A stretch of DNA of 64,000 nt from a virus (lineage: Duplodnaviria > Heunggongvirae > Uroviricota > Caudoviricetes), in IMG/VR virus record IMGVR_UViG_2700989507_000006; one strand, written 5' to 3'. The position numbers were made by a program, and so were the translations under genes. Shown here piece by piece: positions 2,126 to 31,708 of the stretch. Position 1 is the first letter of the stretch, and each line of letters starts with the position of its first letter. Below the pieces are notes generated by a model that saw only the letters and a program-made list of their open reading frames with translations, ran no database searches and had not been told where the DNA came from.

Positions 2126-2371
2126 TCAATGTCTGGCTTTTTTTCTATAGAAATCACCTGGAAGGGTGAATATCCACATCAGAAGAAATGTTGCAGCAAA
2201 CATGATCCCTAATGGCCAGACCGCGCCAAAGAAAATCCATACTAAGATCTCCTCTGCTTGTTCTTTGCGGTCGATATCGACAAGCATTTTTCGGCTGATC
2301 ATGTATACACAGAAGCCAATACAAACATATCCTGCAAAAGCGATCGCTAACTGTAAAAAATCAGATTGCAT
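2126..2371 (-). CDS. small membrane protein (two predicted TM helices)
   Basis: ORF trimmed to the Met preceded by GAGG (start at 2371); two hydrophobic stretches; lies directly downstream of the repL-like gene. An operator-like half-site (2402-2418) sits in the upstream extension of the longer ORF. Confidence 0.4.
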   Translation of the reverse strand: MQSDFLQLAIAFAGYVCIGFCVYMISRKMLVDIDRKEQAEEILVWIFFGAVWPLGIMFAATFLLMWIFTLPGDFYRKKARH

Positions 2372-2421
2372 CTCCGACCTCAAACTGAAAACGCCAGGTG
2401 ACTCCAGATTAGAGCAATCTA

Positions 2422-3267
2422 TCACCCTCTGAATCCTGCCGGTATACCCCATTGTTCGTTATCTTTATTTTTGGCTAAAACCGCATTAAGAGCTTCGTTT
2501 ACCGTCATGCAATGCGGCAGATTATCGAAGTTTGATACCCCGCCAATATCAGGAGAACGCTTGTTCTTCAGGTAAGCATATTTCCGCGCTGCCGCCTCTA
2601 CTTTCTGCTTGAACTCATGTTTTTGAGCGCGTTTTTTGGATAACCGCAGATTGTCAGCCTTTGCTTTTGCCTCAGCGATCCATGAAGTCAATTTTTTGAG
2701 TCTGGTCGTTCCGGCACCGCCGGAAACTGATCTTTTTGTTTTTTTAACTTGTGACTTCTTATTCTTTATTGCCACGTCATCCTGACAGGGGGAGGGGGTA
2801 TCATTTTGACATGGGGGTGTGGATAAAAAATTAAATAAAGCCAATGTCTTAGCGAGAACAGCTTTAACCTTGGTTGCCGCTGAAGAGATCTTTAATTTGC
2901 TTTCAATCAGCGCATTTTTGGCTTGTTGTGCGAAGGCCAAAAAGGATAGTGTAAACCGGTACAGGTTAGCGCGACGTTCATGGTGATCGCCGATAACAAT
3001 CTCTACAGACAGAATTCCTTTGTTTACAGCTTCACGGAATGCACGAACGACGGTTGATTGGCTATAACCAGTTTCTGCCGCGATCAGGCGGTGAGGCTTG
3101 TGAATGAAGTATTCACTGGTTGTTGCCGCTAGATTTGCACATTGCGACAGGATATGCCCGGCGCTACGGGATAGACCGGAGTGTGTTACAAAGCAGGCCA
3201 ATTCATAGCCAGAAAAAGTAAAATCGCTCATCGTTATACAGCTCAGGAAAGTGACTTTAGCCAGCAT
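2422..3267 (-). CDS. repL: RepL-like lytic replication initiator (winged-helix N-terminus, basic C-terminus)
   Basis: 281 aa; position after the KilA-N gene as in the P1 kilA-repL operon; N-terminal HTH-like region and Lys/Arg-rich tail. Start codon uncertain (3267 or 3231). Confidence 0.5.
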   Translation of the reverse strand: MLAKVTFLSCITMSDFTFSGYELACFVTHSGLSRSAGHILSQCANLAATTSEYFIHKPHRLIAAETGYSQSTVVRAFREAVNKGILSVEIVIGDHHERRANLYRFTLSFLAFAQQAKNALIESKLKISSAATKVKAVLAKTLALFNFLSTPPCQNDTPSPCQDDVAIKNKKSQVKKTKRSVSGGAGTTRLKKLTSWIAEAKAKADNLRLSKKRAQKHEFKQKVEAAARKYAYLKNKRSPDIGGVSNFDNLPHCMTVNEALNAVLAKNKDNEQWGIPAGFRG

Positions 3268-3296: not shown

Positions 3297-4097
3297 TTAG
3301 CGCGTTGCCGCGACAGGTACCAGCACACCAGCATCAAGCAATCGCTTCATCAGCCACTGCTGACCTTTGCCGGTTATACGAGTCGTGAAAGAAATCCTGC
3401 TTCCATTGCTTGTATCGATCACGGTTTCTTTAAGGGTGAAATACCCACGGGATATGTATTCTTGTTTGGGGACGTTCCTGCGTTCACCGGTTGCGATCAG
3501 AATTCCGTTATCACGCAACCAGGTGAAGAGATAGTTTTGGCCCAGGCCGAGCACTTTGGCATAGTTGCCGATTAGAACCCCGCTGGCGGTAGCAACGCGT
3601 TCGGCGAATTCGACTTTAGGTGCATCCATAAGCATTTTTTGCTCCAGCCGTTGCTTTTGCTCTGCCAGGTCGGCAGCCAAACGGAGAGCTTCAGGGAGAC
3701 TCTGCGGAATAGCAGGTTGTAATCTTCCGGCTCGATAGTCGATAAATGTCTGGTTTACCTTCAGCCGAAACGCGGGAGAAATCCAGCCTGCGTACTCCAC
3801 AGCGAGCAATTCATGGGCAAAAGTGCCGCCGCCACGGCCTTCGAACGAAACTATGCAATTCTGCATAGTTTCTTTTTCAAGCTCTTCGATGAGCTGTTTT
3901 GCTGACAGCGTTCTTAGCCATTGAGCTGGCGCTTTATGGGCACCGAGTCCGCTCGCTCTGTGTAGAGCATTAAGGTTGTAACGGCCAGCGCGGTCGGTCG
4001 TAATTTCAACACCACAAATAACGGGCAGAGTGGTTGAAGGATCGACATTTTGATGAAGGTTTGATATATTCATATCCGCATTGAATGTTTGTTGCAT
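3297..4097 (-). CDS. kilA: KilA (KilA-N domain plus antirepressor-type C-terminal domain)
   Basis: 266 aa; N-terminus matches the KilA-N domain pattern; C-terminal about 110 aa is paralogous to the C-terminus of the next gene; C1 operator immediately upstream. Confidence 0.65.
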   Translation of the reverse strand: MQQTFNADMNISNLHQNVDPSTTLPVICGVEITTDRAGRYNLNALHRASGLGAHKAPAQWLRTLSAKQLIEELEKETMQNCIVSFEGRGGGTFAHELLAVEYAGWISPAFRLKVNQTFIDYRAGRLQPAIPQSLPEALRLAADLAEQKQRLEQKMLMDAPKVEFAERVATASGVLIGNYAKVLGLGQNYLFTWLRDNGILIATGERRNVPKQEYISRGYFTLKETVIDTSNGSRISFTTRITGKGQQWLMKRLLDAGVLVPVAATR

Positions 4098-4166
4098 TTT
4101 TTCTCCAAATTTGCATCAACCTTCAATCACCAGCTCGAAATGGTGATTCTTTGCACTTAGAAAACG

Positions 4167-4183
4167 AAATTTATTAGAGCAAA
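4167..4183. promoter_or_regulatory. C1 repressor operator (16/17 match to AAATTTATTAGAGCAAT)
   Basis: aaatttattagagcaaa upstream of the kilA start; matches the position of the P1 kilA-repL operator. Confidence 0.6.
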
Positions 4184-4260
4184 TTTCTCTGACTCGATCC
4201 AGATCGGGTTGGACGATCTGCTCAGAAACCTGCCAGTTTGCTGGCAGGTTTTTTCTTTTG

Positions 4261-5670
4261 TTAACCTATTGCTACTGGTTTTAACAAACCAGCATCAAGT
4301 AGCTTGCGAGTTAACCACTGCTGGCCTTTACCCGTTAATTGGGGCGTCAGCCGTATCTGATAGCCATTTTCATCATCCAGCACCACTTCTTTCACCGTGA
4401 AATACCCGGCGTTGATGTACTGTTGGCGCGGTACGTTTTTGCGCGCACCAAAAGCCATGAGAATGCCGTTCTGGCGCAACCATGAGAAAAGGGCGTTTTG
4501 CTTAAGTCCAACGACCTTTGCAAAGTTCCCGATCAGGATTCCATTAGCCACTGATACCCGATCGGCAAAATCGACTTTAGGGGCTGCGGCCACCAGCTGC
4601 TGATTTAGCTGGTGGGTTTTCTGTTCCAGTAGCTGCTTTTGTTCAGCCAGCTCGGCAGCCAGGCGCAGAGCTTCGGGAAGCGTCTGGGGGATTGCGACCG
4701 GTTGCTGTTCTTTTTGCCGGAAGTAGCTGTCTTCCAGTTTTTCAAAGAATGCCCACGCTTGCTCTGTGTCTACGATCTTAGACATGCGTGCCGCTCCGCG
4801 TTCGGTCCAGAGTATTAAGGATCTGGTCTTGGGGGAAATTTGCAGCTCGCTAAAAGATAGTCGCAAACTTTTTATCTCATCTCCTTTGATTTTAAAGAAG
4901 TGTTTACCCTCTACAAATCGTTCTTCATTGCGATTGTAGTTCTGCTGAATACGAATAGGTGTAGTGCCATACCCTCTAGCAAGAGTCTCGGTTGTCACGA
5001 CGCGTACTCCCTGCCATTCCAGAACGGGAATTTCATCAGGCTGATTTTCAACATTTATAGGTTCCAATGACTGAATCATGGTATGTAGCGAACGGCGGAC
5101 CGCTTTTGACTCGCGCGCGGCGACTCGCAGGGCTTGTTTGTAGGTCATGGTTATGACAACCATAGGCGTACCACCACCTGGCGGCACGGTTGCACTTTTT
5201 GTGTAACCGTCCTCACCTTCTAATTCGTCGAGTATTTTTTCGATGAATTTGTTGTTCCGAACCTCTGGTTCCCCACATAACTTACGCGCTTCATTGACCA
5301 TCTTTAACAGTGTCTGGCTGTCGATTGTGTCTCCGGTGGTGGGGATGACATTCACGGCTGGTGCTGGCGTTGCTGAAGCAACAGGTGCTGGTTTTTTAAC
5401 ATTCAAATTATTACTGGTCATTCTATGTGCCTCCTTTCTCATTTCTGCTGCCACCGTTGCGTAACGTAGACGTCCTTGTTCAATCAAATAATCCCTGATC
5501 TCGGCTATCAGTAGCCTGTTGATCACAGCCTTATCTGTTCGGGTATAAAAACGTCTGGTTATCATGAAATAGTTGGCAATTGCGCCGGGGATCTCCCGTG
5601 TCGGCACACAGGCAGTATGCAGGGCGATCGCTTCGGCTATGTCATTACGGGTGACGAGAGGTTTTTTCAT
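4261..5670 (-). CDS. ant: antirepressor Ant (ORF6N-type N-terminal domain plus ANT/KilAC C-terminal domain)
   Basis: 469 aa; central region matches the ORF6N domain pattern; C-terminus matches the antirepressor C-terminal domain; start overlaps the stop of the icd-like ORF. Confidence 0.65.
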   Translation of the reverse strand: MKKPLVTRNDIAEAIALHTACVPTREIPGAIANYFMITRRFYTRTDKAVINRLLIAEIRDYLIEQGRLRYATVAAEMRKEAHRMTSNNLNVKKPAPVASATPAPAVNVIPTTGDTIDSQTLLKMVNEARKLCGEPEVRNNKFIEKILDELEGEDGYTKSATVPPGGGTPMVVITMTYKQALRVAARESKAVRRSLHTMIQSLEPINVENQPDEIPVLEWQGVRVVTTETLARGYGTTPIRIQQNYNRNEERFVEGKHFFKIKGDEIKSLRLSFSELQISPKTRSLILWTERGAARMSKIVDTEQAWAFFEKLEDSYFRQKEQQPVAIPQTLPEALRLAAELAEQKQLLEQKTHQLNQQLVAAAPKVDFADRVSVANGILIGNFAKVVGLKQNALFSWLRQNGILMAFGARKNVPRQQYINAGYFTVKEVVLDDENGYQIRLTPQLTGKGQQWLTRKLLDAGLLKPVAIG

Positions 5671-5888
5671 AAACCCCCCTGAACGTCGGCAGAGAAGGGG
5701 AGGTTCCAGTAACTAAGTGAATTGCGCGAGTTAGTTGAAAAACGGGCAGTAAAAATGCAGGGGCCATCAGGCAATTGAGAGCGTGCTTCGTCTTCTGTTG
5801 CTGCGATAACGAAGTGATAGTGGTGTTTTTTACAGGAATAGAAACGCCAGATGAATTCTTGGCGTGCGCAAGGATTGGCATTAACCAT
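5667..5888 (-). CDS. icd: Icd-like small protein, translationally coupled to ant
   Basis: 73-aa ORF whose stop overlaps the ant start codon; RBS GAGG upstream; position matches P1 icd downstream of c4. Confidence 0.45.
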   Translation of the reverse strand: MVNANPCARQEFIWRFYSCKKHHYHFVIAATEDEARSQLPDGPCIFTARFSTNSRNSLSYWNLPFSADVQGGL

Positions 5889-5927
5889 AGTTACGGCCTC
5901 ACAATCAGGTTTAACAACCTGCTACCC

Positions 5928-6106
5928 GCTGCTAAACAGGTGGCAGGACGTGACGGGGTTAGCAGACTGGCGATTGTGAAACCAGCAGGCCGAAGCCTCC
6001 CCATCACGCCCCACCATAATTTGGGCGTAACGCGGTTTTACGGACACAAAAATACCGCAATATAGGATATCTGCGGCTGTCCGCACAATCATTCAGGCTG
6101 CTAAAC
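5928..6106 (-). ncRNA. c4: c4-type antisense RNA and leader region (boundaries approximate)
   Basis: 10-bp direct repeats (gtttagcagc on the transcribed strand) at 5928-5937 and 6097-6106 flank a segment containing partially complementary elements; sits between a sigma70-like promoter and icd, as in the P1 immI leader. The about 77-nt RNA itself probably lies near 5945-6025. Confidence 0.35.
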
Positions 6107-6133
6107 CCGGTCGCAGAATTTGCTACGACGGCG

Positions 6134-6162
6134 GAACTATAAGCCTGAACGATTAAAAGGTC
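6134..6162 (-). promoter_or_regulatory. sigma70-like promoter (TTGACC-17-TATAGT) reading toward c4-icd-ant
   Basis: Hexamers with 17-bp spacing read on the minus strand. Confidence 0.4.
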
Positions 6163-6202
6163 AATATGATGCGAAAAGATAGCATTCGCGACTTAAAAAT
6201 AC

Positions 6203-6219
6203 AAATTTATTAGAGCATT
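6203..6219. promoter_or_regulatory. C1 repressor operator (15-16/17)
   Basis: aaatttattagagcatt, lying between the divergent immI leader and the downstream secreted-protein gene. Confidence 0.55.
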
Positions 6220-6315
6220 ATATGCTTAATAAATACACAATTGGATCTAATAACCTCTTTTTTTTAAAGGCGAAAATATGTACCCTAAATGAGTTATAAG
6301 GCAGGTGAGGTTATA

Positions 6316-6963
6316 ATGAGAAAACTATTACTACCGTTATTATTTATGGCTGGGACTGTTAATGCAGCATCAAGCGTAAAGGAGATTTGTACCGATTATA
6401 CGAAATACCTTGGGCACGTTTACGGCTTTGCTGTCAGTCAAGACGAATCCATGCGCAAGAAGTTACTGTCAGATATGAAACGCCTTAAACTTTCTGAAGC
6501 GATGGTGCAGCAAGAACTGTATAAAGTCGCAACCAACGAAAATGCTAAATATCAATATTCTCGCCTGTTAAATCCCGACGCAAACGAGATCAATCGAAGC
6601 TCTTTCGATTATATGGTAAAGGCATGCGAAACCGCTCCTGATTTTGCTATCCCTAGCTGGGGTGTGCTGGTGGCGAGCAATGCCGTTAATAAAGAAGACG
6701 TTGGAAGAAACGGCATTGATTCAATCAGAAACGCCCCGGGAATGCGCCATCAAAACGTGCAGGGTACGCTTGAAGAGCGGGCCAGGGGGCCGGGTACAAA
6801 CTCCCCAATGGGAAACCTCTCACCAGAGGAATTGCAAGAGTATAACCAACGGATGGAGCAGTATGAGAAAGCGGCACGCGAACAAATGGAACAACAAAAG
6901 AACGGCTCACTTAATACCTTCCAGCAAGGTTTAAAAGCGCTTAATTTACCCTATGAATGGTAA
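6316..6963 (+). CDS. secreted/periplasmic protein, possible superinfection-exclusion (Sim-like) protein
   Basis: Start chosen at MRKLLLPLLFMAGTVNAASS (signal peptide) with RBS ggtgagg; ORF track starts at 6289. Shares a peptide motif with Sit (see findings). Confidence 0.6.
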   Translation: MRKLLLPLLFMAGTVNAASSVKEICTDYTKYLGHVYGFAVSQDESMRKKLLSDMKRLKLSEAMVQQELYKVATNENAKYQYSRLLNPDANEINRSSFDYMVKACETAPDFAIPSWGVLVASNAVNKEDVGRNGIDSIRNAPGMRHQNVQGTLEERARGPGTNSPMGNLSPEELQEYNQRMEQYEKAAREQMEQQKNGSLNTFQQGLKALNLPYEW

Positions 6964-7535: not shown

Positions 7536-8126
<591 letters not shown>

Positions 8127-8136
8127 GGGGGCTGAT

Positions 8137-8748
8137 ATGGGGCTTAATGTTGCTTCAGTAAAGTCTTATGTATCTTCGGCATTAACGACGACATTATTTG
8201 GCTCCGGCGTTGGTGAGCGGGAAGTTGGTAAGCTGACGTCAATCATCATGAACAAAATGCTGTTCGCGCAAGGATGGCAGTTCTCTGTCGAAGTTGATGG
8301 TCTGGAGGGGGCAGACTTCTTTGCTAAAGACATTACCTACCACGATTACAGCATCGAATATGAAACGATTAAAATCGGCGGAGGGAATATCCTTCAGCCA
8401 ACGGAGCGTTCGCCTGGGCAGATAACAATGATGGTCAGGGATACCGTTGATGGCCTCGTTTTGGACTGGTTTAAGACGGCAAAAGGTCGGGTGATCAATC
8501 CGGACGGTACCGGGAATATACCGTCTAAATATTTGCTCAATGTGCGTATTTATCGGTTGCTGTCCTCCGGTTTAACCAAACTGGAAAATGAGATGACGGT
8601 ATTCCCGGTCACTACCGGCGATGTCACCTATGCGCGAGATCAGGTTACGGAATTTAAGTCATTCCCAATGACCTTCGCATTGCACAGCACGTTTAACCAA
8701 TCCTCAAGTTCTTTAGCTTCCCTTCTGGGCTTTAGTTTTTCTCTTTGA
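8137..8748 (+). CDS. putative tail structural protein
   Basis: 203-aa ORF, RBS gagggggc upstream, 10 bp after the previous gene. Confidence 0.45.
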   Translation: MGLNVASVKSYVSSALTTTLFGSGVGEREVGKLTSIIMNKMLFAQGWQFSVEVDGLEGADFFAKDITYHDYSIEYETIKIGGGNILQPTERSPGQITMMVRDTVDGLVLDWFKTAKGRVINPDGTGNIPSKYLLNVRIYRLLSSGLTKLENEMTVFPVTTGDVTYARDQVTEFKSFPMTFALHSTFNQSSSSLASLLGFSFSL

Positions 8749-22386: not shown

Positions 22387-22852
22387 GATTTTTACTCTAA
22401 TGCGTTGTTCTTATGAGTCTGCGAATTTTAAAGAACAAAGCGTTATGCACAGAAATAACAATCTGAATAGGTTCCTGCTTGATTTTTGTTAGATCCGGGA
22501 GGAGCTTATGCAGATTTTGATTTTTTTAATGTCCATTATTAGTGGAACCTATTTATTTCTTACTGGAGTTAGGCGTGGAGCTTATAAGCCATGTTTTTTA
22601 CATTGGCTTGAAGCATGGCTGCTTGCCATAAAAGGTGGTTTTGTTGGTTTTTGTCTTGCAGAAGTTCAGTGGGGAAACTCATTTTTGAATGTGGTTGCTT
22701 TTTTGATATGTAGTTGGAATAGCCATTTTGTATTAAGAATAACCAAAATATGGGTTTTTCACTTGATTTACGAATGTATTGGCAAATTATGAACAACCAG
22801 ATGAGAAGTTACTTTGCATACCATTACCTCCTGACAACGTAGGAGGGAACTT

Positions 22853-23182
22853 GTGCTTGACACACAGGAATTAGCTCCAGTTGCTATTGCGCTCCTGCTT
22901 TCAGTAATTGGTGGGATAGGCACGTTCCTGATGGATGTCCGAGACGGTCGCCAGTCTGGCAATTTGTTGGGATTGGTTACGGAGATCTTTGTTGCAGTGA
23001 CAGCTGGCGCGGTGGCGTACCTATTGGGGCAACACGAGGGCTGGGAGTTATCAATTACGTACTTAATGGTAACGATAGCCAGCAATAACGGTCATGAGGT
23101 GATTTCAGGGATGAAACGAGTGAATATCGATAGCATTCTGAATGTTCTTACAAGTTTGGTGAAAAAGGGAGGTGGGAAATGA
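22853..23182 (+). CDS. lydA: holin (LydA-like)
   Basis: 109 aa, GTG start with RBS aggaggga, hydrophobic TM segments and charged C-terminus; heads the darA operon. Confidence 0.6.
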   Translation: MLDTQELAPVAIALLLSVIGGIGTFLMDVRDGRQSGNLLGLVTEIFVAVTAGAVAYLLGQHEGWELSITYLMVTIASNNGHEVISGMKRVNIDSILNVLTSLVKKGGGK

Positions 23183-23622
23183 TTGGCTGGGGTGTATGCG
23201 TTCTTGCGTTAGCCTTAGCCGATCGCTATTTGCTAAAACGCAAGGACATCACGCATTTAGAACTTGGTGATGTGGAAATTAAACCGGGTTTCATCCGGGT
23301 GCCGTTCAAGTACCGGTCTAAATTCCCGTTTTTGCGCGGCGCAACGGTCAGATATTGGATCCGCGATGTTCAGAAGCCGACGACAGTGATTGAAGGTGAA
23401 CAACGTTGTCTGACGTCGGCTGAACAGGGCGAAAACAGTGAATGGTTGTACATACCCACTGAATATATGGGTAAAGGAGAGCGACTGTGGCATTTCAACG
23501 TCATGGTTACGCATGGCGACTCGTTCATTAACCCGTTGTATCGGATTTTCCCTGTTACTCAGCAAATCCGCAGAAGTTACGTAATAAATCTCGCACAGGA
23601 TGTGTCAGATGACGAAAAATAA
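23179..23622 (+). CDS. lydB: antiholin (LydB-like)
   Basis: 147-aa ORF overlapping the holin stop by 4 bp; assignment by position. Confidence 0.5.
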   Translation: MIGWGVCVLALALADRYLLKRKDITHLELGDVEIKPGFIRVPFKYRSKFPFLRGATVRYWIRDVQKPTTVIEGEQRCLTSAEQGENSEWLYIPTEYMGKGERLWHFNVMVTHGDSFINPLYRIFPVTQQIRRSYVINLAQDVSDDEK

Positions 23623-24211
23623 GTATGCAACGGTCGATTTTGACCAGGTTAATGAAAAGGGGCTGAAATCCCTTATCGCGGCGATCAATAAAACCGGTGT
23701 TACGGTAATTGAGGTTGACTCCAGCAACCGCGCAACAACGAAAGATGGCGTTAAAGTTAAAACCGCAAAGCTGGTTCTTAACGACGGACAAATTCTTGCC
23801 ATACAGGTAAACGATACTGGCGATATATCGTCTGTGAAACTGAATGGAAAAGCTATTCCTAACGCTCAGTCGCCGGATATCAAGACGCTTGGTACCGTCA
23901 TGGGACAGGCGGCCCGCAAAAACTCCGCAAAATTCCAGAAATCACTGATCGCCAAAGCGAAGCGTGTTGCCAATCCGGTAGACAAGAAACCGGCAGTTAA
24001 ATCCAACTTTCAGCGCCTGCAAGAAGCAAAACAGCGGAATGCTCAGGTGGTTGCCGCTTATAAGTCCGCGCAGAATTCGGTGTCTTTCAATCAACAGCAG
24101 ATCACTGATTTGCGGGCGAAGCTGGATAAGGAGACGGGCCGACTCAATAACGAAAAGGCACGGAATGGCGAACTCAAACGTCGTCTTAAGCAACTGAAAG
24201 CAGGAAATTAA
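23609..24211 (+). CDS. Hdf-like protein (shares a segment with DarA)
   Basis: About 200 aa, Lys-rich; shares the KNSAKFQ-containing segment with the next, larger gene. Confidence 0.5.
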   Translation: MTKNKYATVDFDQVNEKGLKSLIAAINKTGVTVIEVDSSNRATTKDGVKVKTAKLVLNDGQILAIQVNDTGDISSVKLNGKAIPNAQSPDIKTLGTVMGQAARKNSAKFQKSLIAKAKRVANPVDKKPAVKSNFQRLQEAKQRNAQVVAAYKSAQNSVSFNQQQITDLRAKLDKETGRLNNEKARNGELKRRLKQLKAGN

Positions 24212-24212
24212 C

Positions 24213-26132
24213 ATGGAACAGTTCAATATCAATAAAGGGGTGACGATCAAGCCTGGGCTTGACGTGCTTCCCCCGCCAGTGACTGATGATGAATATCGCG
24301 CATTAATGGCCGGTGAGGACCGCTATCTGATGACGGAATCCAACACCCTGGAGGAAATCGAGGCTACGTTCTTCTATGACACGCCGATCCACTGGTGTGC
24401 TACGGATTTATTGGAGGCGATTAGTTCTACTCGTTTGCAGTTACACCGGACCATGCAGGCATTTGTCCGGGCATTGAACCAGAAGCTGAATGGTACCGGA
24501 ATCTCTGCGGGGAGTGATAAAACGGGGGATGTGGCCCAGAGCGGCGCGCGCGCGATCGGCGGCGCTGAAATTGGCCGGGCACGTAACGTTAACGGGCTGC
24601 CAGTCCTGCCAGCCATTATTCCGCTCAGTGATGGTCAGACTATCAGTATTCTGTTTCATAGCCCGACAGCGGAAAACCGGATCACCAATAGCGATACGCT
24701 GGTTGCTTTCCAGTTCTTACTGAATAAAAAAGACGTTACTCACACCGTTGCTCCGATGAGTGGACGTGATATGACGCTGGCGCAGGTCACCATGAAACTT
24801 GCCAACCTTGCAGAGAAAAACTCGGCAAAATTCCAGCGTGCGCAGAAGAAGAAAAAAGCCCTTGTTGATGAAATAACCCAACTACAGGCTGACAGTGACC
24901 AGAAAGAGGATGCCATGAGCGACCTCGCGGATCAGGTGGCAGCGGTAGAAGGGCAGAAGGCAGATCTGGAGCAGAAAATTAACGCTGTTGCATCGGAAGC
25001 GGATTCTCTTTATGAAGAGAATGAGCGTTTGCAGACGGAGATTGATCAGCTCAATCGCACTGGTGGGCGCGATACCATTGCTCCAGCGGGGATGACTGGT
25101 GGGCACTCTCGCGCGCTGACGGATCGCCTTGCCAGTATCAAAAATCGTATGCATATGGACGGGGAAGTGACGCTCAGTAATGGTGCATCAATGAAGCAAT
25201 TCATTGGGGGCGGCGAAGGGTATATCCAGTTAACCGATCCGGATGGCAGCGTATACATGATCAAGGCTAAATCCATACAGGGTGTGGACATGGCAGATGC
25301 GATCGGCAAGCTGTTTAAAGCCTATAAAGCGGGTAATGTATCGGAATACCTGGTCCAACCAGAAGAACATAAACCGGAAAACGTCGAACCTGAACCAGCG
25401 GAGGATACCGGTAGCTCTTCGCCTGAACCAGAAGTCTCTGTAGGTGCATATCGATATGCCCTGCAAATGCGTCCGGCGGCCCCTGGCGCAATACCTGAAG
25501 GTAACAAAGCAATTCTGCCGCGCCCTGATGAAGGTGACCCGTATTATGAATATGCACGCTACGGCATTGCTACTTACGATACCCCGCTTTCTGATCAGCA
25601 AATGAGTGAGTACGACCTGAAGTTATTGCCTCGCGAGGATTCTTTCGACTTCCTGGCGAAGACACTTACTAATGGTCCGTTTGGCAAATATGCACAAAAA
25701 GCTCTGGAGCTGGCCACCAGCTCACCAGACGAGTTCCGCGTAATGCTGAAAACTCAGTTTCAAAAAACTTTCCCCAATATTGCGTTTCCTGGGGGCGCTG
25801 GCACCGAGAAAATGGTGCAGAGCATGATCAATGCATTGCAGGCCGAAGTCGGTGAGATTACTCAGCCAGAACCGGCCCCGGCACAGCCTGATGAAACGGT
25901 TAGCGAAGCAGATGCAGAGGCTAATAAAGCCATTGAATATCTCAATAACGTGATGGATATACAAAGCACTGACATGGCGGAGATCCGTAACGCCCGGGGC
26001 AATGTCCGGGAAGCGATTGCAGCCCTTCAGGCTGCCGGACGTTTTGAGGAAAACGAAGAGCTGGTTAACGGCGCAGCTCGCCACCTGGCTGATCTGCTGG
26101 TAGCAATCCAGAAAGCGGGGGTAGCGGCATGA
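24213..26132 (+). CDS. darA: DarA-like antirestriction/capsid protein
   Basis: 639 aa; position and size match P1 DarA within the lydAB-hdf-darA-ddrA-ddrB operon. Confidence 0.55.
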   Translation: MEQFNINKGVTIKPGLDVLPPPVTDDEYRALMAGEDRYLMTESNTLEEIEATFFYDTPIHWCATDLLEAISSTRLQLHRTMQAFVRALNQKLNGTGISAGSDKTGDVAQSGARAIGGAEIGRARNVNGLPVLPAIIPLSDGQTISILFHSPTAENRITNSDTLVAFQFLLNKKDVTHTVAPMSGRDMTLAQVTMKLANLAEKNSAKFQRAQKKKKALVDEITQLQADSDQKEDAMSDLADQVAAVEGQKADLEQKINAVASEADSLYEENERLQTEIDQLNRTGGRDTIAPAGMTGGHSRALTDRLASIKNRMHMDGEVTLSNGASMKQFIGGGEGYIQLTDPDGSVYMIKAKSIQGVDMADAIGKLFKAYKAGNVSEYLVQPEEHKPENVEPEPAEDTGSSSPEPEVSVGAYRYALQMRPAAPGAIPEGNKAILPRPDEGDPYYEYARYGIATYDTPLSDQQMSEYDLKLLPREDSFDFLAKTLTNGPFGKYAQKALELATSSPDEFRVMLKTQFQKTFPNIAFPGGAGTEKMVQSMINALQAEVGEITQPEPAPAQPDETVSEADAEANKAIEYLNNVMDIQSTDMAEIRNARGNVREAIAALQAAGRFEENEELVNGAARHLADLLVAIQKAGVAA

Positions 26133-26494
26133 CACTATCAGCTATTGAGTTAATGGACCTCAGCGACAAGTTGGATTCTCTGATGTCCAAAGCTGCTACC
26201 GCGAGTGGCATGGAGTTGTTGGATATCAGCGATGAAATTGACCAGATCATGCAACAGATGGGGTACGGCGCGTCCGGCGGCGGTAGTGGTGAGGAAAAAC
26301 AACCTTCGGTACATGATGGTGTGCCAAAACTGGTTGCTGATTTCCTGGCTGATAAATTCGTCGATCAGAGCACCGATGCATTTATCGGTACGTTGCAGGA
26401 CTTGAGTCAATATGTTGGCACATACATCGATCTGGACCAGGTTAAACAACACACGGCGGCATGGATAGCCGCCAACATTAAAGAGGCAGCATAA
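26129..26494 (+). CDS. DdrA-like protein
   Basis: 121-aa acidic ORF overlapping the DarA stop by 4 bp. Confidence 0.45.
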   Translation: MTLSAIELMDLSDKLDSLMSKAATASGMELLDISDEIDQIMQQMGYGASGGGSGEEKQPSVHDGVPKLVADFLADKFVDQSTDAFIGTLQDLSQYVGTYIDLDQVKQHTAAWIAANIKEAA

Positions 26495-26506: not shown

Positions 26507-29494
26507 ATGAGCTTAAGCGATCAGGTGGTGATGGCCACCAGCATAGAAACGCTGATCGAGCTGCTAAAAAACCTGCCCGATTACGGGCGGGTTTCGTATG
26601 TGGTGACAGCGAAGGGAGACGAGGTAAAAACAGCGTTTGATATCGTCGATGCCTCAACTCTTTTGGTATCCAATACTCTGGACGGGAAAATTAATCCGGA
26701 CTATCCCCAGGAACTTCAGCCGCGCGACCGGACCCGCGCATCCAGCCTTCTTCAGGTTAACCAGATATCCAAGGATTTGCGGCCTGCTCAGCTTACCGAT
26801 TCCGGTCTATCCAGCCATGGCGCGCCGATAATTGGTGAGGACAATGCCGTTGAGTCAGGTAATGGACGGACCATGGGGATCATTAAAGCCTATCAGGACG
26901 GCAATGCGGATCGGTATCGGGAGTACCTGATTGAACATGCGAGCGAATTCGGCATACGTCCTGAAAAGGTTGAATCAATGACGGCTCCGGTACTGGTGCG
27001 CCGCCGGTTAACTAAGGTTGACCGCGTTCAGTTTGCCAAAGACTCAAATATTTCTGATCTTCAGGAAATGGCAGCCAGTGAAAAGGCTTTTGTTGATGCC
27101 GACAGCATAACACCGGCGATGATGGCGCTGTTTAATCCGTCAGAAAGCGGAGATCTGCTTAGCCGCAGTAATGACGCGTTTATTCGCGGATTCATGACGC
27201 AAGTTGGTGCCACACAGGCTGCTGGCCTTGTAACGGAAGATGGGCGACCAACGCGGCAACTTGTTGACCGTATACAAAACGCGATCTTTGCCAAGGCATA
27301 TAAGGATGCGCGCCTGGTAAGGATGGTTGCAGAAGAACCTGATCCGGATATGCGTAATGTTCTGACGGCGCTTAATGCGGCGGCCAATGATTTTGTACAG
27401 ATGCAGGCTTTATCAGGAGAAGCGCACAAGCAGGCTGTGACAACTATCGTTGATGGTATTGAAACAGCGGATAGCCTCGATAAAAAGGCGCTGGCGGCAT
27501 TGAAAGATGCGGTAGACCTGGTAAGGCAATCGAAGGAGTCAGGCCAACATATTACCGATGTTATTGCTCAGGGGGATATGTTCAGCGAAACGGCCCCGGA
27601 AGTGAAAGCACTCGCGTTGTTTATCGTCGCGAATAACCGTAGCGCGAAGCGTATGGCCACCGCCTTTAAGTTGATGGCGCAACGTATCAATGATGAGTTA
27701 CAGCACCAGGGCCAGGCGCTCGGGGATATGTTTGGCGGCGGTGATGTGTCGTTACAGGATATCCTTCGCCAGGTGTCTCAGGAACTGGAAAACGAAGGCA
27801 TGCAAGGGATATCCGGCGGTCTTTTCGAGTCCGTTTCCGGCGGTAGTTACAACGGCGTTGCTCCATATACCAGTTTGCTATTACATCGGGCATCCGGCAC
27901 CAAAGACATTATTCATCTGATCAGGCTGCTTTCCCGTACAGATCCCCAGGATGAACAGCTTGTTCAAGTGCTTGCGCATTTTGTTCGAATGCCTGTTGCC
28001 GACGTGAAAAAATGGTGCCGATTATTCGGTATCAGCAATTCGTTACTTCGCGGCTTGTTAAATCACGCATCCTCCCTTGGGCGCGATGGCTTTGACGAGA
28101 TAGCGCAGGCGATAAAAAACGGAGATATGCCACCAGCTATTGACTGGTTTTCCATTCGCCCAACCAGGGTGAAAGCATTCCTTAGCGCGGCGCAATCAGC
28201 ATCACCATTGGCAGAAATGGTTCAGAGGTTATCGCTCATATTCACAGACCATACCGCGTTGGGTGATCTGACTCTGGACGAGATGAAGGAAGCCTCCATT
28301 CAGTGGGCCGATCAACAAAATGAGGTTAACTCAGACTTCTTGCCAGCATTCAGGAAGGCCGTTAGTAAAGCGGATGATGCCCGTGGAATTCTGAAGGCAT
28401 TTAAGGCATTGCAAAGTCGTGTTAATAAACATGTCGGTGATATCGATGGGGTAACGGCGGAAGGCCGGGATATCCTTAAAGAGCACGGCATAACGCCAGA
28501 GTTTATTGATGAGATCAGGACTGATATGCAGCGTGAGGTCGTATCGTCCCTGCAAATCGTAGCCAGAGCGTTGGCGGATGCTAATCCGAAGAGTGCGGCC
28601 ATTGTTAACCGTGTTATTGGTGATATTGAAGCATCGGAGGGCATGGGGGCGCTGAAACTCTTCCTTTCGCGAGCGTTTAATCCTAACGGCAATATTCTCC
28701 CCAGCATTATTGGTGAGGCTAAAAAGCATGTCAGTGAAGAAGAACTTGAGCTGCTTAACCAGCTACTCAATCGATTTTCATATATCCCGCAGAAACGCTG
28801 GCAAATGAATCAGCGAAGTATGGATTCGGTCTACGAGAAAGTGTTATCTGCCATGAACAGTGCGATCGCCAACTCATCTGTATCAGAAGAAAAAGCTCTT
28901 GAGTGGGCCGACTCTTTTATCACGGAAGAAGTGGAAGAAGCCCGCGCTGGACAGAATGGTGGAATAGACTTGCGCAAGGAACTTGCTGATATTTATCGCC
29001 TGACCGGCGGGAAAATATCAACCTTATCAAGGGTAATTCACCACAAGGGTAGGGCGTATGCAAATCTTAATGGTGTTGTTGCTGTCGATTTGCACGATGA
29101 AAATGCAAATGCACTGTGGCACGAGCTGGGTCATCATCTTGAGTACAGTAACCCGGGGTTGTTAGAGAAAGCCAGGTCATTCCTGAAGGCCAATGTTGAA
29201 GGGGATAAGCCATCTTTCGTTAATATCGGTGGGCGTGGCAAGCCTGAATGGTGCTTCAGATCTCGATTGAGTGATATTTATATGGCGAAGGTATACCCGC
29301 CAGCCTCAGTAAGTAACACCGGGAAAATTCGGCAGAAATCACCGACTATTTCCAAAACGTCAGCAACGGAAGTATTCTCTATGGCTCTTCAGTTGTATCA
29401 TGACAAAGAGGCCGCTGCCGCATCACTGATGAATGGTGACGGATTGCTGGAACTGTTATTAGGTGTGGCAAAGGAGCTAAATAATGCAGATTAA
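26507..29494 (+). CDS. DdrB-like large protein of the darA operon
   Basis: 995-aa ORF; assignment by position and size. Confidence 0.5.
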   Translation: MSLSDQVVMATSIETLIELLKNLPDYGRVSYVVTAKGDEVKTAFDIVDASTLLVSNTLDGKINPDYPQELQPRDRTRASSLLQVNQISKDLRPAQLTDSGLSSHGAPIIGEDNAVESGNGRTMGIIKAYQDGNADRYREYLIEHASEFGIRPEKVESMTAPVLVRRRLTKVDRVQFAKDSNISDLQEMAASEKAFVDADSITPAMMALFNPSESGDLLSRSNDAFIRGFMTQVGATQAAGLVTEDGRPTRQLVDRIQNAIFAKAYKDARLVRMVAEEPDPDMRNVLTALNAAANDFVQMQALSGEAHKQAVTTIVDGIETADSLDKKALAALKDAVDLVRQSKESGQHITDVIAQGDMFSETAPEVKALALFIVANNRSAKRMATAFKLMAQRINDELQHQGQALGDMFGGGDVSLQDILRQVSQELENEGMQGISGGLFESVSGGSYNGVAPYTSLLLHRASGTKDIIHLIRLLSRTDPQDEQLVQVLAHFVRMPVADVKKWCRLFGISNSLLRGLLNHASSLGRDGFDEIAQAIKNGDMPPAIDWFSIRPTRVKAFLSAAQSASPLAEMVQRLSLIFTDHTALGDLTLDEMKEASIQWADQQNEVNSDFLPAFRKAVSKADDARGILKAFKALQSRVNKHVGDIDGVTAEGRDILKEHGITPEFIDEIRTDMQREVVSSLQIVARALADANPKSAAIVNRVIGDIEASEGMGALKLFLSRAFNPNGNILPSIIGEAKKHVSEEELELLNQLLNRFSYIPQKRWQMNQRSMDSVYEKVLSAMNSAIANSSVSEEKALEWADSFITEEVEEARAGQNGGIDLRKELADIYRLTGGKISTLSRVIHHKGRAYANLNGVVAVDLHDENANALWHELGHHLEYSNPGLLEKARSFLKANVEGDKPSFVNIGGRGKPEWCFRSRLSDIYMAKVYPPASVSNTGKIRQKSPTISKTSATEVFSMALQLYHDKEAAAASLMNGDGLLELLLGVAKELNNAD

Positions 29495-29795
29495 AATCGC
29501 AGCGCCATTAGGCGGAGATGCCATTATCGAATTTGATGATAATGAAGAAGTTTCCGGGCGTTTAAGCATTATCTCCGGTGACATTACCGAGGACATGATC
29601 GCTGAAGCCATAGTTGGGGCAAATCCCAATAGCTATATGGGATTCGTTAATACCCTTGATGCTCCCGCAAGTGATGTTCTCCGAACGCTGCATCTTTACG
29701 CTGGCTGGTTTGTTGATTGGCCAGCAGTAGATGGTGGTGATGAGGACGACGACGACGATGATTTTGGTGATCATGTAGACCAGATCGTATATTGA
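29484..29795 (+). CDS. highly acidic small protein (possible DNA mimic)
   Basis: 103 aa, Asp/Glu-rich with a DDDDDD run; overlaps the upstream stop by 11 bp. Confidence 0.5.
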   Translation: MQIKIAAPLGGDAIIEFDDNEEVSGRLSIISGDITEDMIAEAIVGANPNSYMGFVNTLDAPASDVLRTLHLYAGWFVDWPAVDGGDEDDDDDDFGDHVDQIVY

Positions 29796-29826
29796 AGAAA
29801 TCCCGCCAATCGGCGGGATTTTTACC

Positions 29827-30921
29827 TCACGAGAAGCTCTTTTCTGATGTCAGCCAACAGTGCTCGTGCAAATCTCTTGGTGGTTTTTCGACAAATGCCT
29901 CTTCAGCTACATCCCGCCAGGGAATTTGTTTAGCCCATTCAGCTATAGCGTTATGGTTTGCTGAGAATAACGGTATTGTATAGGCTTTCAGCCAGTCTAA
30001 TGTGCTGGAGTTGTGTTTTTGAGCGTGATGTTTCGCATGGTGTTTGGCGATCACGATCGTAGGCACTACCCATTTACTACCGTCAGTCATTGTGAAGTGC
30101 ATATTACGGGGAACAGATGATTTTTCCATCAACTCCCGAATCCCAGGGAATTTCCCCAAGATCAATCGGCGATATTTATCGCTATTGCACCCACCAAACT
30201 CTTTGGCTTTATATTCAAGATATGCTTCAGAAACGAGAGGTGAATCCTCTGTGCTGAGAGTTATAGCCGTGAAAATACCAGCAGGATTGTTCTCACTATG
30301 GGCCAACCGGTGATGCGAATCATAAAAATACCCTTTCTCTCGTTCCGATGGTTTCGACAGCAACAGCAGGCGCGAATCATAACCGGTCAAATTGCCTGTT
30401 ATCACAGCATGAGCGCGGTCGCTGATTTCTGCCGCGTTAATAACGATGAAGAGATCATGCGGCCCAGTAAAACCAGCCAGAGATTCTTCGTTATTCAGAC
30501 AATAGTTTAAATATACACATCCCCATGCTTCACTGATATGTACCAACCCTTTTTCAGGGTGCAGTTTGAAATGATTGCCAAGAAAAGGGTGTTTCTTGAT
30601 AACCTGCGCCCAATAACAGCACATATAGTCAATTATATTGTTTCGACTATCGTTAATAGCAGGAGAAACAACCACTGTACGGGAACACGAATACAGTATT
30701 GTTTGCAGGATGCTAATCACTGCCACAATAGAGGTTTCCCCAATACCATGTGGTGTGGTGGCAGTGACTTTGGCTCCGGTGTTCTTTATCGCGTTAATAA
30801 TTTTTGCTTGATGAGGTGTTAACTTAATATCAAGCAACTCTTTTGCTGCCAGTTCCCAATTGTCTTTATACCGTTCTATCAGTGCTAACCAGGCAGATTC
30901 ATTCTGTATACGATTAATCAC
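29827..30921 (-). CDS. terminase-large-subunit ATPase-domain paralogue with degenerate Walker motifs
   Basis: 364 aa colinear with the PacB N-terminal ATPase domain from this window; Walker A GKS replaced by GETS and Walker B acid replaced by Asn; no nuclease domain. Confidence 0.6.
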   Translation of the reverse strand: MINRIQNESAWLALIERYKDNWELAAKELLDIKLTPHQAKIINAIKNTGAKVTATTPHGIGETSIVAVISILQTILYSCSRTVVVSPAINDSRNNIIDYMCCYWAQVIKKHPFLGNHFKLHPEKGLVHISEAWGCVYLNYCLNNEESLAGFTGPHDLFIVINAAEISDRAHAVITGNLTGYDSRLLLLSKPSEREKGYFYDSHHRLAHSENNPAGIFTAITLSTEDSPLVSEAYLEYKAKEFGGCNSDKYRRLILGKFPGIRELMEKSSVPRNMHFTMTDGSKWVVPTIVIAKHHAKHHAQKHNSSTLDWLKAYTIPLFSANHNAIAEWAKQIPWRDVAEEAFVEKPPRDLHEHCWLTSEKSFS

Positions 30922-31708
30922 TTTCCACCTCTTCCGTGGTGTTTTCTTGCAGTTCTGTTAATGCAGCACGACACAGGTTCCGGGCATTGGCTATAGCCAC
31001 ACTTTTTACCTCATCCGTCATTGTGCAGGTAATGTACTGATCGAGTTCTTCAGCTCGGATGATGCTTTTCCCAATCATAAACTCTATTTGCCAGAGCAGA
31101 TCGGCATCCATCGTCAGTATTTCAGCCTGGCCTTCTGGGCCTGCGGGGAAGCAAACATAAGACTGTTTGCCCAGGCCGATAACTCGACAACTTGCTTCAA
31201 GAATTGCACGCTTGAGGTCTAACTTTGTAACTGAAACAGGTTGATTTTCACCTGTGATTACGCCATTGACATGGACGTGGAAGGGCATGTAGCTTGAAAT
31301 TCGCTCTACTTTCCATACGCCAGCAAGCGATCCTTCATGCAGCACAATGGGGGTAACCGCGAGTTTCATCTCACCATATAACTGCTGGCAGATAGCTGGA
31401 TTGCTGAATACATCCAAAGGTTCACACTCAAACAGCGGCGCAATCTGCATGAGGTCCATCATGGTCATACCAGGGGTACGAGCAGTAATGAATCTGCGCA
31501 TTCCAGTATCCATTGTGCGCCAGATAGCTACACCATGCTTTTTGCTCACTTCTTCAGTAAAGCCAAGGTGGCACATGATGGTTTTTTCGATAGCCAGATC
31601 AGAGATAGAAACCTTTTCGCCTGGCACTCCATCATTATTGATGGTCACTTCGACACTCTGGCCATTACGTAGGCGGTATTGAATGGTTTTAGTATTTTGT
31701 GCTGTCAT
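30914..31708 (-). CDS. hypothetical protein co-transcribed with the terminase-like paralogue
   Basis: 264-aa ORF whose stop overlaps the downstream gene start by 8 bp. Confidence 0.5.
   Translation of the reverse strand: MTAQNTKTIQYRLRNGQSVEVTINNDGVPGEKVSISDLAIEKTIMCHLGFTEEVSKKHGVAIWRTMDTGMRRFITARTPGMTMMDLMQIAPLFECEPLDVFSNPAICQQLYGEMKLAVTPIVLHEGSLAGVWKVERISSYMPFHVHVNGVITGENQPVSVTKLDLKRAILEASCRVIGLGKQSYVCFPAGPEGQAEILTMDADLLWQIEFMIGKSIIRAEELDQYITCTMTDEVKSVAIANARNLCRAALTELQENTTEEVESD

Follow-up and report, generated by a model that had tools for sequence, protein, structure and literature searches.

Hxr, the strongly acidic product of the last gene in the late darA operon of a P1-like phage-plasmid: a conserved companion of DdrB with a possible accessory role in the Dar module

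The stretch of DNA considered here, hereafter the window, comprises 64,000 nucleotides (nt) of the IMG/VR virus record IMGVR_UViG_2700989507_000006 (Caudoviricetes) and comes from a P1-like phage-plasmid. On its plus strand, an ATG-started open reading frame (ORF) at 29484..29795 encodes a protein of 103 amino acids (aa) followed by a stop codon. This gene, hxr, had been described in a first-pass annotation as encoding a strongly acidic 103-aa protein that closes the darA antirestriction operon. Its product, Hxr, holds indeed 24 Asp/Glu against 3 Lys/Arg residues; it begins with MQIKIAAPLGG and ends in VDGGDEDDDDDDFGDHVDQIVY, an exact match to the C-terminal sequence reported in that annotation. 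The charge calculation suggested there as a check gives an isoelectric point (pI) of 4.05 and a net charge of -21.3 (-0.21 per residue), about half of it in the C-terminal tail, and makes Hxr the most acidic product of all 112 ORFs in the window that start with ATG and have 80 aa or more.

The hxr region is 96-97% identical at the DNA level to phage P1 and its relatives, and the P1 annotation at this place is hxr (P1_gp021, YP_006490), the product of which shares 97% of its amino acids with that of the window. Residues 1-103 of Hxr also align with positions 1-105 of the profile PHROG 2292 ('unknown function'; E 1.4e-59), a full-length match. This similarity marks the ORF as an orthologue of hxr from phage P1, an already known gene, but an uncharacterised and misannotated one. 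The only mentions of Hxr in the literature found are entries in gene tables and the verdict 'non-essential' of a CRISPR interference screen, in which its knock-down left plaquing unaffected (PMC10695390), and full-text searches, which did not cover Piya 2017 and Lobocka 2004, returned no function assigned to it.

In the late lydA-lydB-hdf-darA-ddrA-ddrB-hxr operon the gene comes last, and its translation is coupled to that of ddrB (Table 1). The overlap noticed in the first-pass annotation, between the start of hxr and the stop of a 995-aa DdrB-like gene, amounts to 11 nt, and the upstream ORF does carry a ddrB-ParB domain. The late promoter LPdar has one exact match in the window, where none is expected by chance, and no sigma-70-like promoter was seen on the plus strand between 21000 and 32000. 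The stop codon of hxr is followed by a hairpin (-19.3 kcal/mol, z -5.51) that none of 200 shuffled sequences folds as well as, and the two genes next after it converge from the minus strand, which bears out the statement that hxr closes the operon. Being encoded in the darA or darB late operon is a mark of the components of the Dar system, and hxr shares it as the last cistron between LPdar and the terminator. An Rfam search of 28800-30400 on both strands returned no RNA family. Two antisense ORFs of 50 and 70 aa within hxr were rejected as genes, as the substitution pattern agrees with the plus-strand frame.

That hxr is a real protein-coding gene under purifying selection is evident from its variation. 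Copies were recovered in 95 of the 97 loci fetched first, all 95 of them in frame, and the ratio of nonsynonymous to synonymous substitution rates (dN/dS) against homologues at 59-96% identity is 0.13-0.22. For the core of the protein in loci L004 and L008 (81% identical), dN is 0.043 and dS 1.16, a dN/dS of about 0.04. Alleles differ chiefly in the number of Asp codons, owing to an in-frame GAC/GAT repeat polymorphism at 29739-29762 (loci L018-L097), so that a run of about 4 to 9 Asp residues in otherwise near-identical alleles yields proteins of 101-105 aa. The sequence of the tail evolves freely, yet its acidic, non-basic character is kept.

The relatives of Hxr form a small family of about 30 clusters, and P1-like elements are the only place where it was found. 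When 1.84 billion representative proteins were scanned exhaustively with HMMER, 18 matched, and a profile search of 5.8 billion proteins gave 30 matches. Named matches and those on long contigs are Enterobacterales sequences (Escherichia, Salmonella, Klebsiella, Citrobacter and Rosenbergiella among the genera) or P1-like contigs of ~80-96 kb. Three large repeat proteins (P0023, P0025 and P0026), matched by the profile at E 5e-5 to 6e-4 in 4-9 stretches, were treated as spurious, and two of them, P0025 and P0026, turned out on inspection to be unrelated tandem-repeat proteins. Members down to 29-45% identity share a length of 95-105 aa, the motifs P-x-S-x-x-G-x-V-N and V-L-R-[ST]-L...G-W-x-V-x-W-P, and the invariant core residues G53, V65, L66, R67, W75, W79 and P80 of the family alignment. 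In all 20 family members compared, the tail measures 18-23 aa, 7-13 of them acidic and none basic. Its last residues are IVY in the P1 clade and, for the most part, [IV][IV]N in the others, with no conserved aromatic residue. Among 5,426 complete E. coli genomes, 479 carry the hxr segment (29380-29830 of the window), at 471 plasmid and 11 chromosomal places; most of the plasmids listed measure about 95-100 kb, and the NCBI pipeline names these copies hypothetical protein. P1-like phage-plasmids are thus common, and they are the kind of element reported with resistance genes such as mcr-1.

In 137 of 142 scanned loci, ddrB lies directly upstream with an overlap of 11 nt. Even in divergent elements with fetched context, where proteins are only 29-45% identical, hxr always follows a ddrB of 929-1017 aa, and the overlap is 11 nt in all of them except L007 (17 nt). 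A purine-rich Shine-Dalgarno (SD) sequence within the last ddrB codons accompanies it, with the GGAG core kept in most clades and GGAA in L004 and L008. Co-inheritance with the other Dar genes, a further mark of a Dar component, is equally clear: between four clades, Hxr identity is 29-41% versus 28-45% for LydB, Hdf, DarA, DdrA and DdrB of the same elements. Hxr is, consequently, a conserved module member and not a hitch-hiker. Since the contents 3' of hxr differ in every clade, it is also the last conserved member of the module, and the cargo slot of these elements starts after it.

The exceptions to the linkage of ddrB and hxr are recent accidents or partial contigs. In phage vB_EcoM-813R1 (L002), ddrB starts only at 3533 and is shortened and annotated as two pieces, 3533-5809 and 5806-6495, while hxr is intact; an IS200/IS605 (IS609) transposase gene (2203-3228) stands between ddrA and ddrB in this phage. 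Locus L003, considered as a stand-alone hxr without ddrB, was rejected as such, given that the final 95 nt or so of ddrB remain attached and mark it as a deletion remnant rather than an independent context. The operon of L007 is 94-100% identical to that of the window up to about nt 29057, beyond which the 3' end of ddrB (~430 nt, HEXXH motif included) and hxr have been exchanged jointly for a divergent allele. This joint swap hints at a tie between Hxr and the C-terminus of DdrB. In the same locus, hxr is tandemly duplicated (8001-8555; 184 aa, P0015), the first copy having a tail stub and the second a full tail. In the metagenome contig L139 (571-1542), the tail is lost after ...DGGDE and the ORF continues into porin-like sequence as a 323-aa fusion, probably because of a deletion that joined hxr to a downstream porin gene, or of a misassembly.

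The structure of Hxr was predicted with AlphaFold2 as a monomer from a 20-sequence alignment, and the five models were concordant, with mean confidence scores (pLDDT) of 73-77. Residues 1-80 are modelled at a pLDDT of ~88 with three beta strands followed by two helices and a short closing strand (beta-beta-beta-alpha-alpha plus strand), while the tail, residues 83-103, is predicted to be disordered (pLDDT 39-53). Fold searches of the PDB and BFVD gave no match for the core model; in the latter, a protein of Vibrio phage VAP7 (A0A4Y5TVF7) came at rank 20 without significance (TM score 0.32-0.36, E 1.7). The PDB sequence search returned only RapA and CD109, neither of them significant (E at least 0.35). 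On the basis of the model, the core would be a small globular domain of unrecognised fold.

A Pfam scan of the window protein and its relatives at a cut-off of E <= 1, with the Ocr and ArdA models assumed to be included, gave no match for any of the 20 family members, and PADLOC and NCBIfam returned nothing meaningful for Hxr. These results bear first on the GenBank annotation of P1, 'possible repressor; homolog of Xre', according to which Hxr would be an Xre-related transcriptional repressor. The label goes back to some 58 residues that show 28% identity to an Xre repressor, which is all that speaks for it, and it has been copied into many records. None of the 20 members matches HTH_3 or any other helix-turn-helix (HTH) family in the Pfam scan, no helix-turn-helix protein appears among the PDB sequence matches, and the predicted fold, with three to four strands and two helices, is not the five-helix fold of such repressors. 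Instead of a basic DNA-binding surface, Hxr has a pI of 4.05 and a net charge of about -21, which are incompatible with DNA binding, and the operon from which it is expressed is a late structural one. The repressor reading is thus extremely improbable; the label is effectively refuted and ought to be dropped. Paralogy with DdrA, the other small and very acidic protein of the operon, was likewise discarded (BLASTP E 0.087).

The same results bear on the proposal of the first-pass annotation that Hxr could be a DNA mimic of the Ocr or ArdA type. As a statement of family membership it fails, for neither the Pfam scan nor the PDB sequence and fold searches link Hxr to either protein. The comparison of the predicted structure with DNA-mimic folds also came out negative: the all-alpha, rigid and DNA-shaped fold of Ocr (T7 gp0.3) contrasts with a mixed beta/alpha core that has no structural match, and half of the net charge sits on a disordered tail and not on a rigid DNA-shaped surface, which argues against an Ocr- or ArdA-like reading. 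Furthermore, a free decoy of the Ocr type, acting in trans, has to be made early, and hxr lies in the late LPdar operon. As a statement of mechanism the proposal survives in a weaker form, as Hxr may imitate nucleic acid electrostatically towards some partner. The broader suggestion that Hxr is an extra Dar or anti-defence component is a reasonable idea, given that a conserved cistron of the darA operon combines with extreme acidity throughout the family.

Table 1. Features of the late operon and of hxr in the window
Feature	Position (nt)	Strand	Remarks
Late promoter LPdar	22806..22824	+	-22 box AAGTTACTT, -10 TACCAT; identical to annotated LPdar of P1 NC_005856
lydA	22853-23182	+	Lysis gene at operon head; order as in P1 annotation
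lydB	23179-23622	+	Lysis gene at operon head; order as in P1 annotation
hdf	23600..24211	+	pI 10.2, net charge +20.5
darA	24213..26132	+	ORF, P1-like gene order
ddrA	26129..26494	+	121 aa, pI 4.09; PHROG 1855 'DdrA-like anti-restriction protein', E 1.7e-57
ddrB	26507..29494	+	995 aa; N-terminal ddrB-ParB (PF18763, E 2.5e-39); C-terminal HEXXH metallopeptidase region
hxr Shine-Dalgarno	29471..29476	+	AAGGAG, 7 nt before ATG, inside last ddrB codons (Lys-Glu)
hxr coding sequence	29484..29795	+	96-97% DNA identity to P1 hxr; PHROG 2292, E 1.4e-59
Predicted globular core (aa 1-82)	29484..29729	+	AlphaFold2 model (pLDDT ~88) and alignment; net charge about -10
Polyacidic tail, predicted disordered (aa 83-103)	29730..29792	+	11 acidic, 0 basic; pLDDT 39-53; terminal residues ...IVY
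Asp run inside tail	29739-29762	+	Length varies in frame among alleles
Hairpin terminator	29796..29823	.	12-bp stem, AAUC loop, U-run; between converging hxr and 364-aa minus-strand ORF

The reviews and structural papers found list six Dar proteins: Hdf, DarA, DdrA, DdrB, Ulx and DarB. The protection that they provide is reported to work solely in cis, for the DNA within the same head (PMC12707154). Hdf, DarA, DdrA and DdrB are head proteins of the virion (PMC9024508), and a cryo-electron microscopy study reports 55 DarA-Hdf pairs with a positively charged, DNA-facing surface (PMC12810830). The mass of DdrB is reported to fall from about 109 to 76 kDa by processing ahead of packaging (PMC5512222), and its ParB-like and metallopeptidase domains are interpreted here after that last paper. 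The HEXXH motif of its metallopeptidase region lies at aa 872 (nt 29120) in the window. As calculated from their sequences, DarA, DdrA, DdrB, DarB and Hxr are all acidic, and Hdf is the sole basic protein of the operon (+20.5 in the window, +5.7 to +7.6 in three other clades).

Two observations concern ddrB itself. A 132-aa antisense ORF inside it (28331-28729, minus strand) corresponds to the gene annotated iddB in P1. In addition, large proteins of two Vibrio phages of the Ackermannviridae, 144E46.1 (L098, 2019-4495) and VAP7 (L099, 606-4504), share the C-terminal metallopeptidase region of DdrB at 26-30% identity. These proteins are directly followed by ORFs of 87-90 aa (4232-4495 in L098 and 4232-4504 in L099, the latter pair including the A0A4Y5TVF7 of the BFVD search), which were tried as relatives of Hxr and kept as a positional analogy only, being not acidic, without a tail and at an hhalign probability below 1% against the Hxr profile. 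The 'tetraspanin-15' annotation of the small VAP7 ORF is surely wrong.

Taken together, the data lead us to propose, tentatively and with somewhat less than even confidence, that Hxr is a seventh protein of the Dar module, one that would bind, while heads are assembled, to those surfaces of the Dar cargo that are basic or bind DNA. Such surfaces must be handled before DNA enters the head. Hxr would be an accessory protein acting in the producing cell, late in infection, where its folded core would dock on a Dar cargo protein and its polyanionic tail would serve as a nucleic-acid surrogate on the basic or DNA-binding surface of that cargo. This surrogate would stay in place until the cargo is inside the prohead, when real DNA would replace the tail. 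One candidate surface is the positively charged, DNA-facing side of the Hdf-DarA pair; another would lie in DdrB, in its ParB-like or its metallopeptidase part, and the C-terminus of DdrB is synthesised just before Hxr. In effect, Hxr could be an escort, a placeholder or an inhibitor, following a logic similar to that of acidic histone chaperones or of barstar and the immunity proteins.

Displacement at packaging would leave little or no Hxr in mature virions, and it is not among the virion proteins listed by the virion study, of which neither the main text nor the one supplementary text file covered names hxr (PMC9024508). This agreement carries little weight, and it is the first of several points that speak against our proposal. 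The virion proteomics relied on trypsin and required at least two unique peptides, and the three tryptic sites of Hxr give peptides of 4, 22, 41 and 36 aa, just one of them of ordinary size, so that Hxr was probably missed and its absence is weak evidence. Overlapping starts are common in the operon (lydA/lydB, 4 nt; lydB/hdf, 23 nt; darA/ddrA, 4 nt), so the coupling of ddrB and hxr shows co-expression and not partnership. Physical linkage would likewise suffice to produce the joint swap in L007. The positive charge of Hdf varies three-fold between clades and the negative charge of Hxr does not, and the segments of DdrB are neutral to acidic (pI 4.8-6.4), leaving no obvious global basic target.

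The low visibility of Hxr to trypsin counts equally in favour of an opposite fate, in which the protein would be packaged like DdrA and injected, and would act as a polyanionic decoy or block of type I restriction-modification, BREX or other DNA-binding defences at entry, being a mimic by effect and not by family. We regard this main rival of our proposal as unlikely. The four head proteins encoded upstream show that products of this operon do enter the head, and DdrA is small and very acidic too. A late cytoplasmic free decoy cannot protect incoming DNA, so any antirestriction role would need packaging, with which alone late expression is compatible. Moreover, a charge density of -0.21 lies within the range of Ocr and ArdA. 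On the other hand, Hxr has never been reported in virions, it resembles no solved DNA mimic in sequence or in fold, and no consensus capsid-targeting signal is known with which it could be compared. The strictly cis action of Dar also fits a diffusible decoy poorly, and argues against a decoy of the Ocr type as the basis of Dar.

A bolder version combines both fates: Hxr would be an overlooked seventh Dar component with a fold unseen in the PDB and BFVD and a tail that serves as a removable DNA surrogate, which either gates cargo surfaces during prohead loading or is injected to jam the DNA-tracking defence enzymes of the host at entry. It would thus be a 'fuzzy' mimic, unlike the rigid Ocr and ArdA. 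This version is rather doubtful in our opinion, albeit worth stating.

An improbable third possibility is that Hxr rides the late transcript to act outside Dar, on a target of the host or of the phage, be it as a mimic of the tip of the single-stranded DNA-binding protein (SSB) or of another acidic tail, as a nuclease (RecBCD) inhibitor that guards the linear packaging ends, or as a lysis-timing factor. The operon does include genes foreign to Dar, lydA and lydB, and an acidic tail with a hydrophobic end recalls those of the SSB type. To our knowledge, no anti-RecBCD function has been described for P1, which leaves room for one. However, the SSB tip motif (D-D-D-I-P-F-COOH) is absent from the Hxr family, whose tails end as described above without a conserved aromatic residue; the SSB of the element itself ends in DFEDDIPF. 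Strict and deep co-inheritance with ddrB would be unexpected for an independent moron, and the true moron slot starts just 3' of hxr.

The variable slot 3' of hxr is represented by stretches of several P1-like elements (8457-9147 in L004, 14374-14951 in L005, 9669-10408 in L010, 9015-10127 in L007 and 6905-9468 in L001). Across elements it holds a RelE-family toxin beside an MqsA/HTH-type antitoxin, MazE/PemK and ParE/HTH pairs, a porin, IS1 with isaA and isaB, or genes of unknown function, and the gene table of an mcr-1 P7-like plasmid places the porin gene ompD there. In the window, the isaB-IS1-isaA slot of P1 is occupied by two overlapping minus-strand ORFs of 364 aa (29827-30921) and 264 aa (30914-31708), which have no Pfam matches and belong to PHROGs 5902 and 2326, neither of which has an assigned function. 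A terminase-large-subunit PHROG also matches the 364-aa protein weakly (E 8.7e-9). In one GenBank record this protein is called 'terminase large subunit', a label that looks like an over-annotation of an ATPase-like domain.

The Dar system of P1 is the classic example of packaged antirestriction. Hxr has been overlooked in it, even though it is co-inherited with the Dar operon in all the P1-like elements sampled, coupled to ddrB, and the most acidic protein of the operon; the 'Xre-like repressor' label of 2004 and its near-invisibility to trypsin-based proteomics are the likely reasons. Should Hxr escort or gate Dar cargo, it would bear on how large DNA-binding proteins are loaded into proheads and on the engineering of P1 as a protein-delivery vehicle. 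Should it be injected instead, it would represent a new structural class of anti-defence polyanion.

The closest known counterpart of the window protein is Hxr of phage P1, which occupies the same place after ddrB with the same 11-nt overlap and has the same tail except for the length of the Asp run. The window allele differs from it in a private A44V substitution and in one additional Asp, and is followed by the two minus-strand genes where P1 has isaB-IS1-isaA. With the Dar head proteins, Hxr shares the late operon, co-inheritance and the acidity of DarA, DdrA, DdrB and DarB. In contrast to them, its charge density is far higher, half of its net charge is concentrated in a short disordered tail, and it has no similarity to DdrA.

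Ocr and ArdA form rigid dimers with a structured surface that imitates B-DNA, are produced early or upon entry, and act in trans. Like them, Hxr is small, has a very low pI, is encoded by a mobile element and stands in an antirestriction context; unlike them, it is expressed late, has a disordered tail, and is unrelated in sequence and fold. The tails of SSB, T7 gp2.5 and T4 gp32 resemble that of Hxr in being disordered, purely acidic and hydrophobic at the end, and such tails dock in basic or DNA-binding clefts. Their tips, however, read DDDIPF or DDF, and the OB-fold core has no equivalent in Hxr.

A last comparison, with barstar, the colicin immunity (Im) proteins and the acidic histone chaperones, is an analogy only, as no fold or sequence match supports it and no toxicity of DdrB is known. 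Nevertheless, an immunity gene is typically small, directly downstream of its effector gene and coupled to it, and hxr has this arrangement: its product is small and acidic, and is encoded in direct coupling 3' of a large protein predicted to combine ParB (nuclease-like) and peptidase regions. What Hxr may share with barstar and the histone chaperones is the logic of shielding a nucleic-acid-binding surface until the right moment.

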